Source: a virus (lineage: Duplodnaviria; Heunggongvirae; Uroviricota; Caudoviricetes). Taken from it: 4,771 bases of DNA. The position numbers and the translations under genes are program-made. The notes beneath the pieces were generated by a model that saw only the letters and a list, made by a program, of their open reading frames with translations, did no database searches and was not told the origin of the DNA. Positions 1-4,771 of the stretch are shown in pieces (position 1 is the first letter of the stretch; every line of letters starts with the position of its first letter). The stretch is taken from the IMG/VR virus record IMGVR_UViG_2778261502_000006; one strand, 5' to 3'.

Positions 1-315
1 TTATACACTTTGCTGTGGGATTTTCACGATTGAGGTACCATCAAATCGCCAGGTTAAATCAGCGTCAAAACCAGCAGGTAAAGCTTCAACTTCAGTCACT
101 GACATATCAACCGGGTACAGCATTGATACATCCTTTGCGCACGAACAAATAATACCGTCATCCCCATATACAATTTTCCAGGTATCTTCTCTGAATAACT
201 TTTGTGATTCGTACCAGTCATTGCCTTCATCATCACGAAGGTAAATGACTCCTGAAATGTATGTTTCTGGTGTGTAACGAGTCAGATTTTTTAACGTCAG
301 CATTTTGTTATCCAT
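1..315 (-). CDS. Tail-fibre assembly protein (Tfa; Mu U / P2 G family), N-terminal domain only, about 104 aa. Start ambiguous: ATG 313-315, TTG 316-318 or ATG 301-303.
   Basis: Minus-strand ORF ending TAA at 1-3. The segment DEGNDWYESQKLFREDTWKIVYGDDGIICSCAKDVSMLYPVDMSVTEVEALP matches the N-terminal signature I recall for Mu U / P2 G (EDGKNWYEE..PDT.K.VYD...I.....DVS..NP.....VEV). Its start overlaps the stop of an upstream tail-fibre-like frame (ATGGATAA), the usual stf-tfa coupling. The conserved C-terminal Tfa domain is absent. No clear SD. Confidence 0.6.
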   Translation of the reverse strand: MDNKMLTLKNLTRYTPETYISGVIYLRDDEGNDWYESQKLFREDTWKIVYGDDGIICSCAKDVSMLYPVDMSVTEVEALPAGFDADLTWRFDGTSIVKIPQQSV

Positions 316-544
316 CAATTGTTACCCAATTGCCATTCAGTCTCACCTGCATCGGCGCCACGCGTATTGCTGAAATTGTGATGTAGGTATCATTACTCAG
401 ATTGGTTAGCCCACACAGGAATGAACCACCAGGGGCGTCATAAGATTTTGACTCTCCACCACTACCACCTGGTGTTGCAATGGATGTGATAGCACCGCGC
501 CGGAACCCGCTAGGGTTACAGGTGGTTGTGGAACTGGTCGATAG
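308..544 (-). pseudogene. 3' remnant of a side tail-fibre (stf-like) gene: 78 sense codons with no start codon, ending TAA 308-310.
   Basis: Minus-strand frame is open from 544 to 311, bounded upstream by TGA (545-547). Translation is Gly/Ser/Thr-rich (...NPSGFRRGAITSIATPGGSGGESKSYDAPGGSF...NGNWVTIDG*) and ends 5 nt inside the tfa start, as tail-fibre genes do. The upstream body of the gene is missing. The tail-fibre call rests on position and composition only. Confidence 0.35.
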
Positions 545-632
545 TCATCCCTAAATCGGAAGCCATACCTAAGCGACCATGCTTGTGTGCCTTACACATC
601 AGGCGGATTGCTGTATTTATGCTGTCTACCAT
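516..632 (-). CDS. Small HTH-like protein, possibly a truncated cII-like regulator (38 aa from ATG 630-632; the longer 62-aa ORF from ATG 702-704 would overlap the cro 3' end).
   Basis: ATG at 630-632 is preceded by GAGGGA with an 8-nt spacer. It lies 31 bp downstream of the cro stop on the same strand, the lambda cII position. The product MVDSINTAIRLMCKAHKHGRLGMASDLGMTIDQFHNHL has a helix-turn-helix-like segment but is too short for a full cII, and its 3' end overlaps the tail-fibre remnant frame. Confidence 0.35.
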   Translation of the reverse strand: MVDSINTAIRLMCKAHKHGRLGMASDLGMTIDQFHNHL

Positions 633-663
633 GTTGATTTCCCTCTGGTAGTTAATAATCAAC

Positions 664-921
664 TTAAAGTTGACTATTGTTGTTAGCGGAAGGTATGCCG
701 TCATTTTTGTTCGGATAAATATCAGGTCGTAATTGATGGGGAGTTACTACCCATCCGCCCCATTGGCAGAGTTGAATAACTCTTTCAGAAGGTACTCGGT
801 TCTTTGCAATCCAGTTCGCAACAGATTGAACTGATTGGAATTCAAACCGCCTTGATACCTCTGAAATCGACCCGATCGCCTTCACAGCTTTAGCTGTTAC
901 ATTCTTGTGTTGAGATGACAT
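664..921 (-). CDS. cro: Cro-like DNA-binding repressor (Cro/YdaS-type HTH), 85 aa.
   Basis: ATG 919-921 is preceded by AGGAGA with a 5-nt spacer (reverse complement of 926-931); stop TAA 664-666. The segment FQSVQSVANWIAKNRVPSERVIQLCQWGGWVVTPHQLRPDIYP resembles the Cro/YdaS helix-turn-helix pattern (...S.W....RVP.ER...I...TGG.VT..ELRPD). It is divergent from the CI-like gene. The track ORF 664..978 adds an N-terminal extension with no RBS. Confidence 0.75.
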   Translation of the reverse strand: MSSQHKNVTAKAVKAIGSISEVSRRFEFQSVQSVANWIAKNRVPSERVIQLCQWGGWVVTPHQLRPDIYPNKNDGIPSANNNSQL

Positions 922-1026: not shown

Positions 1027-1710
1027 ATGGTGGAAAATGCTAAATACAAAGACTTTGCCGAAAGGCTAAACAGGTCTCTCCAAGAGCAATCTATTGGAGT
1101 TAAAGAATTGTCAGAGTTCAGTGGTGTCTCGTATGAGATGGCGCGGCGCTACACTCTTGGTACTGCAAAGCCGAGAGATGAGAAGATGATTCGAATTGCA
1201 GAAAGACTTGCCGTCTCACCGGCTTATCTTGATTATGGTGTGCCTGTTAATGGTGGCGACGCGCCAGCCAAAGGCACGGTCAGAATAGAGCAATTGGATG
1301 TTCATGCTTCAGCCGGTTCCGGATATATAAACCAACCATTCCCTACAATAGTGAGCTCAATAGAGATTCCAGAAGAGAGGATCTTCGAGTTGTTTGGTCG
1401 TAGAAGCCTTGATGGCATCGTCATGATAAATGTTGATGGCGATAGCATGATGCCCACGCTTTGCCCAAAGGACCTGCTTTTCATAGACAGCAAGGTTGAA
1501 CAATTCAGCGGCGACGGCGTTTATGTGTTCAATTTTGAAGACAGTACGTTCGTTAAACGTTTGCAGAAGGTAAAAGGGCGTCGACTGGCAGTTCTTTCAG
1601 ACAATGAACATTACCCGCCCTTCTTCATAGAGGAGCATGAAATGAATGAACTATACATATTCGGCAAGCTAATCAGATGCTTACCTCTAAAAATGATAGA
1701 GTTTGGCTAA
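991..1710 (+). CDS. cI: CI-like prophage repressor: N-terminal HTH plus C-terminal S24 (LexA-like) autopeptidase domain; 239 aa, or 227 aa if it starts at ATG 1027.
   Basis: Full-length ORF with stop TAA 1708-1710. HTH-like region (SIGVKELSEFSGVSYEMARRYTLG). S24 signature with nucleophile Ser in GDSM (VDGDSMMPT) and general-base Lys in FVKRL. Candidate Ala-Gly cleavage site in HASAGSG. No SD before ATG 991, so possibly leaderless like lambda cI. Confidence 0.9.
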   Translation: MTTMPCALNLLLMVENAKYKDFAERLNRSLQEQSIGVKELSEFSGVSYEMARRYTLGTAKPRDEKMIRIAERLAVSPAYLDYGVPVNGGDAPAKGTVRIEQLDVHASAGSGYINQPFPTIVSSIEIPEERIFELFGRRSLDGIVMINVDGDSMMPTLCPKDLLFIDSKVEQFSGDGVYVFNFEDSTFVKRLQKVKGRRLAVLSDNEHYPPFFIEEHEMNELYIFGKLIRCLPLKMIEFG

Positions 1711-1726
1711 TAATTAATTCATCAAG

Positions 1727-1750
1727 AAACCGGCGAAAGCCGGTTTTTTT
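1727..1750 (+). terminator. Rho-independent terminator downstream of cI.
   Basis: AAACCGGC-GAAA-GCCGGTTT stem with GNRA-type tetraloop followed by a run of 7 T. On the minus strand the same hairpin is followed by TTTCTT, so it may act in both directions. Confidence 0.75.
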
Positions 1751-1802
1751 ACGCCTCCAATTCCTCACCTCATAACACTACACTACTAAAAATTTCATTT
1801 TT

Positions 1803-1845
1803 CTACTTTTTGTTGTTGCAATTATCTACTTAAAGTAGCTATAGT
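1803..1845 (+). promoter_or_regulatory. Candidate sigma70 promoter with an embedded operator-like dyad.
   Basis: -35-like TTGCAA (1816-1821), 18-bp spacer, -10-like TATAGT (1840-1845). The spacer contains the perfect dyad CTACTT-A-AAGTAG (1826-1838), the same CTAC-N5-GTAG pattern as in the cI/cro intergenic region. A partial site CTACTTTTTGTTG lies at 1803-1815. Confidence 0.3.
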
Positions 1846-1941
1846 CATTGCATCGAAAGCGAACAGGCAGGACGCCCACGAAGTAGCCGCCGGTGGCGTA
1901 TGAATAACCGGATGATTCGCACAATGTCTGATGGAGGGATT

Positions 1942-2166
1942 ATGGATAGTAAAGAACCAAAGATTTCAGCCGGCGGTATGTCGAACGATGAACTGCTTGC
2001 CTGGATGAAAAATAAAACTAAAGCGGTTGAGGAACTCAAATCCGCTTTAGCTCATAAGGAATTTCTGGAAGAGCAGCTTCAGATTAATGCCGCGGAGATT
2101 GAAAGACTTACTCCACAAGCATGTATGAATATTCTTTTGAGTGATCAGGATTCCATTCCCCATTGA
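1942..2166 (+). CDS. Hypothetical small protein, 74 aa, predicted helical / coiled-coil (track ORF begins at 1900).
   Basis: ATG 1942 is preceded by GGAGGG (1933-1938). Product MDSKEPKISAGGMSNDELLAWMKNKTKAVEELKSALAHKEFLEEQLQINAAEIERL... is charged and helical. Its last 59 nt overlap the 3' end of the convergent 175-aa gene, so one of the two may be non-coding there. Confidence 0.3.
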   Translation: MDSKEPKISAGGMSNDELLAWMKNKTKAVEELKSALAHKEFLEEQLQINAAEIERLTPQACMNILLSDQDSIPH

Positions 2167-2635
2167 TGAAGTCATCAAAGGAAGATTCCCAAACATTTGC
2201 ATGAATTTTATCTAAAAAGCCCCTATATGACTGTGGAAGTTTTTCCAAAACAAGGTGGTGCTGAACGGCAATGATGACATCTTCGAGATCCATCTTTCTT
2301 ATTTGCTCGCCAGGCCAGCTGTAAGTCTTATTTAGCAAGTGGATGATTGCAGATTTTCCCTTGAGAGGGCTGAAAATGGTTCCATGCTCCTGACGGTGGA
2401 TGGCGAGCATGACATCTAGCGTAGTAAGAAGGATGGCTCTGTTTTTTACTTTATGTAGCTCATCTTGAGAAACAGCTCCCATCTGAGGGATGTCTCTTAC
2501 TGAATGAATGGTCGCTATATGCGCCTTGAAGATTGCTGAATAGAAAGCGGTGCTCATTATTTTATCCTTCTTGGCTGTGTAGGAACTCCAAGATACCACC
2601 GAGCCTGATGTGGTGAAAAGACAGGCACACAACAT
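2108..2635 (-). CDS. Hypothetical accessory protein, 175 aa (149 aa if started at ATG 2555-2557); no family recognised.
   Basis: Minus-strand ORF, opposite to the cI-int strand. ATG 2633-2635 is preceded by AAGGAG with a 9-nt spacer; internal ATG 2555-2557 is preceded by AAGGA with a 7-nt spacer. No transmembrane segment or motif I recognise. It sits between the immunity and integration modules, where lambdoid phages carry exclusion genes. Confidence 0.55.
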   Translation of the reverse strand: MLCACLFTTSGSVVSWSSYTAKKDKIMSTAFYSAIFKAHIATIHSVRDIPQMGAVSQDELHKVKNRAILLTTLDVMLAIHRQEHGTIFSPLKGKSAIIHLLNKTYSWPGEQIRKMDLEDVIIAVQHHLVLEKLPQSYRGFLDKIHANVWESSFDDFINGEWNPDHSKEYSYMLVE

Positions 2636-2703
2636 GAAAGCGCACTCCTTTACTTACCAGTTATGGGTGACAGGTGTGAAACAGGTGGAGTGCGCTTCCA
2701 GTT

Positions 2704-2780
<77 letters not shown>

Positions 2781-2832: not shown

Positions 2833-2878
2833 GGCGGTACCAGTACCAACCTTTGAAGTCCCTGGTACCGCCCTTTTT
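2833..2878 (+). terminator. Rho-independent terminator downstream of the tRNA.
   Basis: Perfect 11-bp inverted repeat GGCGGTACCAG (2833-2843) / CTGGTACCGCC (2862-2872) with an 18-nt loop, followed by CTTTTT (2873-2878). The long loop is atypical. Confidence 0.55.
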
Positions 2879-2963
2879 ACTCAACTGAAAGCGCGTTCTG
2901 TCCCTTGTCATTAAGTGCCAGTTCGTTAAATCCAAAACCAGCGGAACGCGCTTTCAATTGAGT
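2879..2963. repeat. Long inverted repeat: 20-bp arms with one mismatch, 45-bp spacer.
   Basis: Arm 2879-2898 (ACTCAACTGAAAGCGCGTTC) pairs with 2944-2963 (GAACGCGCTTTCAATTGAGT); the single mismatch is C2885 against T2957. It lies immediately after the terminator T-run and is not followed by a T-run itself. Confidence 0.6.
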
Positions 2964-3124: not shown

Positions 3125-3289
3125 ATGACGACCACACAGAACGTCACTGAGTTACAACCACGTATGACCAGAGAGCAACTGATCGATGCAGCTCGTAAAG
3201 CGGCCCCTCTTCTTCCGGTTGCTTACCGCGGGATCATGACAGAACTGGCTACGCCGACTGAAAGCCGATGTAGCATGGTGGAAATCTGA
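3125..3289 (+). CDS. Hypothetical small protein, 54 aa (track ORF 3014..3289 has an unsupported N-terminal extension).
   Basis: ATG 3125 is preceded by GGAG (3112-3115) with a 9-nt spacer. Product MTTTQNVTELQPRMTREQLIDAARKAAPLLPVAYRGIMTELATPTESRCSMVEI. Its 3' end overlaps a second open frame (from 3240). Confidence 0.4.
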   Translation: MTTTQNVTELQPRMTREQLIDAARKAAPLLPVAYRGIMTELATPTESRCSMVEI

Positions 3290-3311: not shown

Positions 3312-3500
3312 GTGTTCGAACTGGCAAACGAAATTGCTGAACTAAGAAGCATGGTGATTCGTGTACCAATGCCGGTAATGGTGCCAGTAGAGATACTTCA
3401 TCAGCTAAATGGGAAGGGATCGAAAGAATATCCATTATGTCGCAATTGCAACGATGGAACCCGTCACGGGTGTTCATCGTGTGCTTACAGAATGAAGTAA
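3312..3500 (+). CDS. Hypothetical small Cys4 (zinc-ribbon-like) protein, 62 aa from GTG 3312 (49 aa from ATG 3351).
   Basis: The frame is open from 3240. GTG 3312 is preceded by AAGG (3303-3306). C-terminus CRNCNDGTRHGCSSCAYR gives C-x2-C-x7-C-x2-C. It is followed by hairpin AACCGG-GTGCAG-CCGGTT (3499-3516), just upstream of the xis SD. Confidence 0.4.
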   Translation: MFELANEIAELRSMVIRVPMPVMVPVEILHQLNGKGSKEYPLCRNCNDGTRHGCSSCAYRMK

Positions 3501-3533: not shown

Positions 3534-3761
3534 ATGAGCGGACAAATCCAACGTTTTCTTACTCCTGATGACCTCTATCAATTAACTGGTTATCGTCGAC
3601 CTTCCCTACAGTGTAAGGCTCTGAGGGATAGTGGAGTTTTTTTTATCCCACGTAAGGACGGCAGACCTGGAACTACATGGGATCATGTATCAAACCCGGT
3701 TGGCCTTAAGTTGATAGTGAGCAATCCAGAGGAAGAAGAACCAAACTTTAAGGATATGTAA
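3534..3761 (+). CDS. xis: Excisionase (lambda Xis-like), 75 aa.
   Basis: ATG 3534 is preceded by GGAGA (3522-3526) with a 7-nt spacer. Stop TAA 3759-3761 overlaps the int ATG (TAATG), as in lambda xis-int. Similarity to lambda Xis is by remembered pattern (RRPRSL...PP.KDGR against RRPSLQ...IPRKDGRP). Confidence 0.7.
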   Translation: MSGQIQRFLTPDDLYQLTGYRRPSLQCKALRDSGVFFIPRKDGRPGTTWDHVSNPVGLKLIVSNPEEEEPNFKDM

Positions 3762-4771
3762 TGTCTAGAGCTCGCAAAAACCCTGATGATAACTGGATGC
3801 CTCCCCGCGTTCGCCGGGGAAAATCTGCTTATGAGTTTCGTACCACAGATGGTCGTACCATCAGGTTGTGCAATCCTGAGCTAACAAAATCGCAGGTATG
3901 GGCAGCTTACGAAAACTTCATAAACGATTTAAAGGTTGGTACGAACTTCAACGCACTTTGTGAAGAGTTCTTTAATTCCGGTGATTTCCACGAGTTAGCA
4001 ACTGAAACACGTAAAGACTACAGAAAATACGGTTCAAAGGTAAATGTTGTCTTCGGGAAAATGAAGCCGGATAACATCAAGCCAGAGCACATCAGAAAAT
4101 ACATGGATAAACGAGGTGTTAAGAGCAGAGTTCAGGCAAACCGCGAGAAAGCATTTATGTCCAGGGTGTTTCGGTGGGCATACGAACGAGGAAAGGTGAA
4201 GATGAATCCTTGCCAGGGCGTTAAGCAATTTAAAGAGCAGGCTCGAACCCGTTATATTAGCGATAGAGAATATGATGCACTTTATAGCGTAGCTTCTGTT
4301 CCAGTAAAAGTTGCAATGGAATTGGCATATCTATGTTGCGCCCGCCAGGGAGACATTCTTGACCTCAAAAAGAGTCAAATATTGAGCGAAGGAATTTTAA
4401 TTCAGCAGAGTAAAACCGCAGTTAGCCAGATCAAGGCCTGGACAAAACGTCTGGAGGATGCCGTTAATCTTGCTGACAGCATTCCTCTTAATAGCGGGAT
4501 GGTAAGTATTTTTGTCATCCACCAGCCATCAGGTCTGCGATACACACGCGATGCTTTTAATGCGCAATGGATGAAGACTAAAAAAATTGCTGCTGAAAAA
4601 TATCCAGACCTCGATTTCCAGTTCACTTTCCATGATCTAAAAGCCAAAGGAATTTCTGATCTTGAAGGTACGCTTAGTGAGAAGCAGGAAATTTCAGGTC
4701 ATAAAAACGCCTCGCAAACAGCGAGATATAACCGAAGAATTTCAGTTGTTCCGGTCGTCGGGGGGCAGTAA
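3761..4771 (+). CDS. int: Tyrosine recombinase / lambda-family phage integrase, 336 aa.
   Basis: Full ORF with stop TAA 4769-4771; AAGGA SD 6 nt upstream. Arm-binding-like basic N-terminus. Catalytic-domain blocks align with lambda Int: LAMELAYLCCARQGDIL (box I Arg), IQQSKTAV (Lys), FTFHDLKAKG (box II His), GHKNASQTARYNRR (His and nucleophile Tyr). Confidence 0.95.
   Translation: MSRARKNPDDNWMPPRVRRGKSAYEFRTTDGRTIRLCNPELTKSQVWAAYENFINDLKVGTNFNALCEEFFNSGDFHELATETRKDYRKYGSKVNVVFGKMKPDNIKPEHIRKYMDKRGVKSRVQANREKAFMSRVFRWAYERGKVKMNPCQGVKQFKEQARTRYISDREYDALYSVASVPVKVAMELAYLCCARQGDILDLKKSQILSEGILIQQSKTAVSQIKAWTKRLEDAVNLADSIPLNSGMVSIFVIHQPSGLRYTRDAFNAQWMKTKKIAAEKYPDLDFQFTFHDLKAKGISDLEGTLSEKQEISGHKNASQTARYNRRISVVPVVGGQ

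Follow-up and report, generated by a model that had tools for sequence, protein, structure and literature searches.

Our findings point to a conserved two-gene accessory cassette that very probably occupies the genomic slot held by the exclusion gene sieB in the phages P22 and lambda. It lies in a stretch of viral DNA of 4,771 nucleotides (nt) from a member of the Caudoviricetes (IMG/VR record IMGVR_UViG_2778261502_000006), hereafter the window, which is a 4.8-kb piece of an e14/SfV-type lambdoid prophage. The cassette joins a gene of the ECs1072 family, which from its database entries is named but uncharacterised, to a small gene that converges on it. An earlier reading of the same letters (the original prediction) had described two open reading frames (ORFs) here, at 2108..2635 (minus strand, 175 amino acids, aa) and 1942..2166 (plus strand, 74 aa), convergent with a 59-bp overlap, and had proposed them as a phage-encoded defence or exclusion locus. 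Both frames, their convergence and the overlap (2108-2166) are confirmed, and the length of the larger product is revised below. The elements that carry the argument are as follows.

2108..2557, minus strand: gene of the ECs1072 family (NF033230, phrog_5286); translation from the ATG at 2557 gives 149 aa, and the reading frame stays open to 2635
1942..2166, plus strand: small partner gene, 74 aa (phrog_1744)
2546..2629, plus strand: Block B, a sas-like leader with its core at 2595-2629, assigned through homology to the P22 sas antisense RNA
1803..1845, plus strand: predicted pL-equivalent promoter (TTGCAA-18-TATAGT at 1816-1845) with two operator dyads, from a promoter scan
1855..1924, plus strand: Block A, a conserved, structured RNA of ~70 nt in the pL leader, assigned through covariation

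A convergent, overlapping partner accompanies the large gene in every full-length homologous locus that we examined, down to ~28% identity. Among IMG/VR and GTDB loci, 17 have the large gene at full length, and in all 17 a convergent small ORF carries the motif EPxIxAxGMSxEE[LI]xxWMxxK and overlaps its neighbor by 32-92 bp. In phage records, a full-length homologue of the large protein was accompanied by the small one in six of six cases, convergent and overlapping; across these 17 loci, L001, SfIV, L146 and ST64B the 3' overlap ranges from 29 to 92 bp. The E. coli prophage L001, whose cI repressor gene and tRNA are those of the window, carries cargo alleles that are 34% and 30% identical to ours and converge with a 71-bp overlap. 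The Salmonella phage ST64B encodes an unannotated 144-aa member of the large family (~28% identity, tblastn E 2e-4) that converges with sb50 over 71 nt, and residues 39-93 of sb50 match the small-ORF profile (E 3e-10). This pair is located between the Q-like gene sb49 and the holin gene sb51, with the large gene again antisense to lytic transcription, and its position away from pL indicates that the cassette moves as a unit. Comparison of loci thus presents the two genes as an obligate, strict and mobile two-gene module. The original prediction had raised the possibility of a two-component function, and pairing of the two ORFs is supported by their co-occurrence at every full-length homologous locus examined.

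The large protein, for which no family signature had been recognised, does have one. It matches NCBIfam NF033230, "ECs1072 family phage-associated protein", at 127 bits (cut-off 70) with residues 32-169 on profile positions 3-140 of 142, and PHROG 5286 at E 5e-34. An exhaustive profile search returned 105 cluster representatives of the family, nearly all of 143-157 aa, and the family was found in phage or prophage contexts only. The 175-aa start, by comparison, is probably wrong. The aligned homologues are 144-152 aa long, and the family profiles and all homologues start at window residue 27 (ATG 2555-2557), which has its own Shine-Dalgarno (SD) sequence, AAGGA, 7 nt upstream. Two in-frame ATGs are present in the window (2635 and 2557), a point we considered with regard to an internal start of the Esc type; the upstream ATG is not shared by other family members. 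The 26-codon extension between them (2558-2635) crosses Block B, DNA that is conserved as nucleotides in phages with unrelated cargo, and is out of frame or absent in other alleles. The AAGGAG at 2645-2650, taken earlier for a strong SD of the 175-aa ORF, belongs to an inverted repeat with 14-nt arms (2635-2648 / 2687-2700) that lies shortly ahead of the tRNA. Since the homologues begin at Met27, the extension is not conserved and AAGGAG sits in the inverted repeat, the real start of the gene is almost certainly the ATG at 2557. The resulting 149-aa product falls within the ~145-155 aa of a single-domain protein, and the 175-aa reading is not conserved.

The small protein matches PHROG 1744 (phrog_1744) at E 3.9e-13, with residues 1-64 on profile positions 1-64 of 68. 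Its homologues form 94 protein clusters, every one of them named "hypothetical", and an identical 74-aa protein has been annotated by NCBI. The shared motif lies at the N terminus and is followed by one long helix; in the AlphaFold2 (AF2) model the N-terminal 14 residues are extended and residues 15-70 form a single, 55-residue helix (predicted local distance difference test, pLDDT, 83.8), in agreement with the helical ORF originally described. In the alignment, the conserved core comprises residues 1 to ~64 and the tail encoded within the overlap is variable. In the large gene, by contrast, the stretch shared with its neighbor codes for the invariant EW[ND]P motif. The overlap probably matters through transcription rather than dual coding. 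An 88-aa version of the small ORF, starting at 1900, is an artefact in conserved non-coding DNA. This version and the 26-codon extension of the large gene are the kind of chance frame that could be suspected of one or both ORFs altogether. For the core ORFs such an explanation is effectively refuted and has a negligible probability, given that both keep their frames intact across dozens of loci, with protein conservation down to ~28-30% identity, that both yield confident AF2 models and that their homologues are transcribed.

Structure prediction gives the 149-aa protein an all-alpha fold of seven helices (pLDDT 84.8, predicted template modelling score 0.82). Profile and structure searches supplied family names (NF033230, PHROG 5286, PHROG 1744) and no match that gives a biochemical function: Pfam, queried with the protein and 55 family members, gave no consistent family; the family profile found nothing among PDB sequences (best E 1.3); and Foldseek against BFVD and PDB returned nothing below E 0.48. 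The weak top Foldseek matches are HEPN toxins of MNT-HEPN pairs, and together with the strict co-occurrence of the two genes and their co-expression in ST64B lysogens (described below) they recall a toxin-antitoxin-like addiction or stabilisation pair, in which the large protein would be toxic and the small one neutralising. We consider this very unlikely. The HEPN matches are not significant (E at least 0.64, TM ~0.22), no conserved Rx4-6H motif is present among the invariant or consensus columns of the family, the genes are convergent and not co-transcribed as in type II toxin-antitoxin operons, and neither matched toxin or antitoxin models in Pfam, NCBIfam or PADLOC.

The position of the cassette is best understood through Block B. 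This leader overlaps the ECs1072-family gene at its start codon and SD, and the Block B core is 94-97% identical in 154 phage records, lambda and P22 included. In these two phages Block B lies 74-126 nt upstream of sieB, and sieB itself, antisense to the pL operon, converges on gene 24 (P22) or N (lambda). The published P22 sas RNA (nt 11,387-11,513, pL-direction strand; PMC13397905) includes Block B in its sequence: nt 31-113 of sas and positions 2546-2629 of the window are identical at 66 of 88 aligned positions, and at 35 of 37 at the end. The sas RNA is an antisense RNA that switches translation of sieB from SieB to its inhibitor Esc, and P22 thus escapes its own exclusion (PMC12197685, PMC7067206). 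Of 17 locus types, 13 have Block B upstream of the ECs1072-family gene. The gene in the window likewise lies antisense within the pL operon and converges on the first pL gene, with a sas-homologous region over its start and leader. Because slot and orientation are the same and the leader is homologous, the ECs1072-family gene is to be seen as an allele that replaces sieB on a shared regulatory chassis, with an unrelated protein. The original prediction had placed the locus where lambdoid phages carry exclusion genes, and it is now seen to hold the exact sieB position, with a sas-homologous leader.

The resemblance to the sieB/esc/sas locus of P22 and lambda therefore concerns the slot and orientation, downstream of the repressor and pL and antisense to the pL operon, and the design, in that pL activity can oppose a lysogen gene. 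The two loci also differ. A separate, strictly linked small gene replaces N or gene 24 as the convergent neighbor, an internal start of the Esc type does not appear to be conserved, and the protein is unrelated and soluble, while SieB is membrane-bound. Neither protein of the pair contains a transmembrane segment, and the maximum 19-residue Kyte-Doolittle hydropathy (KD19) of the large one is 0.79, in comparison to 3.01 for P22 SieB. Blocks A and B have no match in Rfam; within the window only the tRNA matched at E up to 1.

The promoter that would drive the opposing transcript was identified through its operators. The dyad CTACTTAnnGTAG is found at 1826-1838 (exact) and 1803-1815, overlapping the promoter-like site, and the same motif recurs three times between cro and cI (953-965, 976-988 and 1021-1033); the window has 9 matches with no more than 2 mismatches against 0.75 expected, a number reached in 0 of 200 shuffles. 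As these operators are common to the cro/cI region (oR), 1803-1845 is, on sequence grounds, the pL-equivalent promoter under repressor control, and the repressor-operator-like dyad that had been noted at a candidate promoter proves to be that of the cI/cro region. The predicted pL transcript would read rightward through Block A, the 74-aa gene, the ECs1072-family gene in antisense, the sas-like segment and tRNA-Arg, so the antisense interplay suggested earlier is built into the architecture of the locus. Further operator-like dyads with 2 mismatches occur at 660-672 (cro stop / ymfL start) and at 2446-2458, inside the ECs1072-family gene, the latter probably by chance.

Block A begins a few bases past the predicted pL start. 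Its outer helix pairs 1859-1863 with 1916-1920, its inner hairpin pairs 1890-1894 with 1907-1911, and an invariant 24-nt stretch lies between the helices. Block A is present in 53 phage records, and its 21-nt core occurs in more than 120 IMG/VR contigs; other copies lie at 7339-7408 in L001, 3011-3080 in L003 and 6110-6180 (minus strand) in e14 (L027). Over 31 distinct sequences, 96.5% of cells are paired and 9 of 10 pairs show compensatory changes, with a covariation score of 0.739 against 0.185 in shuffles (0 of 500 reach the observed value) and at most 0.163 in slid controls. The covariation model R1 scores 94 bits in the window and finds one copy per phage among the stretches examined, e14 included. 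Covariation thus supports Block A as a structured leader RNA absent from Rfam. Single-sequence folding alone (z +1.6 and -0.07) had suggested an unstructured segment, but covariation reveals the two helices. An Arg-rich, N-like peptide is ruled out for Block A, which has no start codon, shows non-synonymous substitutions and differs in frame between phages.

The position of Block A is that of nutL in lambda and putL in HK022, here in phages with no N gene at this place. The likeness to HK022 put extends to an RNA of ~70 nt immediately downstream of pL, a phage without an N-type gene in the N position and terminator-like hairpins downstream in the same transcript; such elements follow Block A at 2833-2880 in the window and in ST64B, where the small RNA STnc1310 ends in a terminator. 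The architecture differs, in that putL and putR each consist of two adjacent stem-loops, whereas in Block A an outer helix encloses the invariant strand and one hairpin in a nested arrangement. R1 has no match in the HK022 (immunity region, L150 and L151), lambda or P22 regions, and identity of Block A with HK022 put is rejected, as neither covariation model nor pattern matched. By analogy, Block A could possibly direct put-like processive antitermination of the pL operon. In some phages (L001 at ~7420-7450, L005-type, L125 and L144-L146) an rrn-like boxA (GCTCTTTAACAA) follows a short hairpin ~25 nt downstream of Block A; it is absent from the window.

Blocks A and B are both non-coding and are shared by phages that differ in cargo; between them, at ~1925-2595, the cargo is exchangeable. 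Among 71 loci collected through an exact match to the Block A core, a selection whose proportions are not unbiased, this interval falls into 24 sequence clusters with roughly a dozen unrelated cargo types. The usual content is a plus-strand ORF convergent and overlapping with a minus-strand ORF; ECs1072-family pairs, the commonest cargo found, fill 25 of the 71 loci, and 6 are nearly empty (280-300 nt). None of the other cargos matches PADLOC. In prophage e14 of E. coli K-12 the same slot is occupied by ymfJ and ymfI, which share the chassis: they lie downstream of the cI-like ymfK, have Block A (R1 73.9 bits) on one side and Block B on the other, and consist of a plus and a minus ORF that converge with a 63-bp overlap. 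YmfI and YmfJ have no sequence similarity to either protein of our pair and are ruled out as homologues. A membrane protein found as cargo (L031 type) is ruled out as a SieB homologue, showing no BLAST similarity. In three loci (L002, 4065-4274, plus strand; L004, 3065-3262, plus strand; and the L105 cargo), the first pL-side ORF encodes a small protein with a C4 zinc finger of the ClpX type (Pfam zf-C4_ClpX, E 8e-6); in F1055 the minus-strand partner of such an ORF encodes a member of the BssS family (E 6.5e-17). Salmonella phage 118970_sal3 (L004) has, downstream of the slot, a sub-threshold Rfam match to STnc100 (3781-3975, plus strand; 37.5 bits, gathering 47, E 8e-5), which covers a region annotated as a minus-strand ORF that is probably spurious.

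The location of the small gene, first after pL, where lambda and P22 have the regulators N and gene 24, also invites an explanation in which the pair serves the phage's own life cycle. The small protein, like N in position or cIII in size, would be an early pL regulator, and the large one a lysogeny-phase regulator, for example of the induction threshold or of repressor stability, that is switched off by pL. A repressor-protection gene does lie beside cI in the imm434 region, and e14 ymfJ is SOS-induced with early genes; its induction is late, together with ymfM, as for other repressor-controlled e14 genes. We regard this explanation as unlikely. Some similar phages have nothing in the slot and others have unrelated cargo there, which makes its function dispensable for the phage; in ST64B the pair lies at the Q-lysis junction, outside the immunity region, and is expressed there by lysogens; and the small protein has neither an Arg-rich motif nor a profile match to N or gene 24.

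Expression data for the ST64B pair come from S. Typhimurium D23580, in which it corresponds to STMMW_20121 (435 nt) and STMMW_20131 (sb50, 360 nt), with sizes, order and 71-nt overlap all in agreement. STMMW_20121 has its own promoter, is transcribed in almost all conditions, antisense to lytic genes, and was put forward as a candidate accessory gene expressed in lysogens (Owen et al. 2020, PMC7067206); neither the partner relationship nor the family was noted there. By RNA-seq, the transcripts per million are 60-270 for STMMW_20121 (4.9 in one condition) and 22-258 for STMMW_20131, in comparison to 0.3-35 for the holin and 1.5-7 for the Q-like gene (PMC7067206). ST64B lysogens therefore transcribe both homologues while the neighboring lytic genes are silent. 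The ST64B pair shares both protein families and the convergent arrangement with ours and differs in lying between the Q-like gene and the holin rather than at pL, with no adjoining Block A or Block B. Because both genes are co-expressed in these lysogens, the small protein is argued to be a partner rather than only an antidote made at induction. At the pL leader of the same phage, ~190 nt downstream of Block A, lies STnc1310 (record L156, 27655-27728, minus strand), which has an intrinsic terminator at its end, reaches its highest abundance under conditions that induce prophages and looks like an attenuated pL leader transcript. Its identity with Block B is ruled out: ST64B has no Block B at that place, and STnc1310 is a different RNA.

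ECs1072 itself is listed among growth-phase-regulated genes in uninduced O157 Sakai, and like STMMW_20121 it varies with growth condition. Combined with the presence of a BssS-family protein, a biofilm regulator, as cargo of the same slot and with the retention of the cassette beside O-antigen modification (gtr) genes in a grounded prophage remnant (below), this could speak for lysogenic conversion unrelated to phages, in which the pair would benefit the lysogen through stress response, biofilm or growth-phase behaviour. Such a role seems to us quite unlikely, since coupling to pL and a sas-like antisense leader are the known self-sparing design of an exclusion gene, and since the family is confined to phage or prophage contexts.

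By analogy, exclusion or abortive infection is the best-supported reading of the pair, which makes it a good candidate for such a system, because SieB acts in this manner from the same slot. In the lysogen, the ECs1072-family gene would be transcribed leftward from the sieB-type leader, and the minus-strand transcript would run antisense through the small gene toward the terminator hairpin of cI. The ECs1072-family protein would be an accessory effector against superinfecting phages, through exclusion or abortive infection, or would provide some other benefit to the lysogen. The small coiled-coil protein would partner it physically, as a modulator or antidote or else as a co-sensor. Upon induction, pL would fire and the small protein would rise, convergent transcription would collide with the effector gene, and a sas-like antisense RNA over the effector's ribosome-binding site would shut the effector down, thus sparing the phage's own lytic growth. 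We give this scheme as a whole, a lysogen-expressed effector of superinfection exclusion or abortive infection that is shut off by pL, an even chance, and place anti-phage activity of the cassette as such between even and slightly below it.

Several observations weigh against the exclusion reading. The slot also carries cargo unrelated to defence, of which the BssS-family protein is an example, so that the slot is not defence-specific and location alone is weak evidence. Searches of both proteins against the PADLOC-DB v2.0.0 models gave no families at E up to 1, though P22 SieB is likewise without a match, which indicates that this library does not cover Sie-type genes. No homology between the large protein and SieB was found (best blastp E 0.11 over 22 aa; profile below 0 bits), the former being soluble and the latter a membrane protein, and similarity to Rex was also not found for the proteins. 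A consensus sigma-70 promoter for the minus-strand gene was not found, the best candidate being TTCACC-16-TATCTT with 8 of 12 positions; Block B as this promoter is ruled out, as the match is 8/12 and the -10 element is not conserved. We infer the transcription start and extent of the sas-like RNA at this locus by homology only, and the ECs1072 family is uncharacterised in all its members. Finally, the joint expression of both genes in ST64B lysogens is a misfit to an antidote made only on induction. The defence or exclusion function originally proposed thus gains the sieB position and the sas leader and finds no match in SieB, Rex, the PADLOC models, or solved or viral predicted folds.

Other accessory genes are informative for comparison. 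BstA has self-immunity, and RexAB causes abortive infection. Both BstA of the Salmonella prophage BTP1 (PMC7067206) and lambda rexAB resemble our pair as lysogen-expressed accessory genes beside the immunity region; they differ in being other proteins, with no homology and another strand arrangement, rexAB being co-transcribed with cI. What is new here is the obligate partner, the sieB/sas chassis, the cargo-slot architecture common to e14 and the leader RNA; the ECs1072 family already had its name. If the pair is an exclusion system, it represents a new effector family with an unmatched fold, and the sieB/esc/sas logic, in which a lysogen defence is switched off by the resident early promoter and an antisense RNA, would extend to interchangeable cassettes.

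A broader generalization, which we find doubtful, is that Block A, cargo and Block B (sas) form a general plug-in chassis of e14/SfV/ST64B-type phages, with lambda/P22-type phages joined to it through Block B. Unrelated bipartite cassettes, swapped into it, would each provide a lysogen effector read antisense to pL and a pL-side partner that disarms it at induction; the ECs1072 pair would be a new abortive infection or exclusion system whose fold has no known relative, ymfJ/ymfI and about a dozen other cargos would follow the same logic, and Block A would be a new RNA element, possibly a put-like one required for readthrough of the pL operon terminators. Were this true, ymfI and ymfJ, orphan genes of K-12, would gain their first hypothesis. 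The two flanking blocks represent a sequence handle with which to harvest cargo from thousands of enterobacterial prophages, the same approach that made the P2/P4 hotspots productive.

The remaining features of the window place the cassette in its prophage context.

1-318, minus strand: fragment of a tail-fibre-assembly gene (phrog_136)
516-704, minus strand: YmfL/cII-type gene, truncated to the first 34 of 143 profile positions
664-921, minus strand: cro/YdaS-type gene
1027..1710, plus strand: cI-type repressor gene of the S24/LexA family (Pfam Peptidase_S24, E 3.5e-17, and HTH_3; phrog_4, E 2e-43)
1724..1749, plus strand: intrinsic terminator after cI, a stem followed by U7 (inverted repeat I7)
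2635..2700, plus strand: long hairpin separating Block B from the tRNA, its 14-nt arms 93% complementary (inverted repeat I3; fold z -1.9)
2704..2780, plus strand: phage-borne tRNA-Arg(UCU), oriented in the pL direction (ARAGORN; Rfam tRNA, 66.5 bits)
2833..2880, plus strand: terminator-like barrier in the pL transcript after the tRNA, made up of a perfect 11-bp hairpin and the sequence CUUUUUA behind it (inverted repeat I5)
3534-3761: xis
3761-4771: int

The cI frame is open from 991, and the start in the annotated homologue is the ATG at 1027; L001 carries an identical cI gene, annotated as "LexA family transcriptional regulator". The cI terminator folds at -16 kcal/mol (z -4.7 on the plus strand and -2.5 on the minus strand), and its hairpin also forms on the minus strand, where it is followed by UUUCUU, which makes it a possible end point for the minus-strand transcript. 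The hairpin at 2635..2700 includes the ATG and SD once read as a gene start and is shared only with L001, which also has the tRNA; phages that lack the tRNA retain a tRNA-like T-arm remnant (GGTTCGATTCC) at the same place. The element at 2833..2880 folds at -23 kcal/mol (z -4.8), and its DNA is conserved in phiNP and L001. Two gene fragments lie between tRNA-Arg(UCU) and xis.

The whole window is present in no complete E. coli genome, the matches ending at 516/517 and 3251/3252, and a search of 5,426 complete E. coli genomes gave no match to this cargo allele. The reduced layout recurs exactly in a draft assembly (L153), where it is inserted beside pgsA and followed by gtr-type O-antigen modification genes, and L152, L154 and L155 are intact versions with a full early-left operon. 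Given this exact reduced layout in L153 and these intact versions, the source of the window is, by comparison of the assemblies, a grounded prophage remnant keeping cI, the cassette, the tRNA and gtr; in L153 the cassette is kept with cI and gtr genes, and the lytic genes have been lost. The placement of the locus between the immunity and integration modules therefore holds in this copy and arises only through deletions that removed the early-left operon. Near 516/517, the phrog_136 tail-fibre-assembly fragment abuts the truncated YmfL/cII-type gene. At the other deletion joint, where genome matches stop exactly at 3251/3252 (ORFs 3125-3289 and 3312-3500), the N-terminal part of a 215-aa early gene, complete in L001 at 9112-9759, is joined to unrelated sequence, and of the ORF that follows only the C-terminal part of phrog_14816 is matched. 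In the L153 remnant, gtrC/gtrA/gtrB-like O-antigen modification genes come next.

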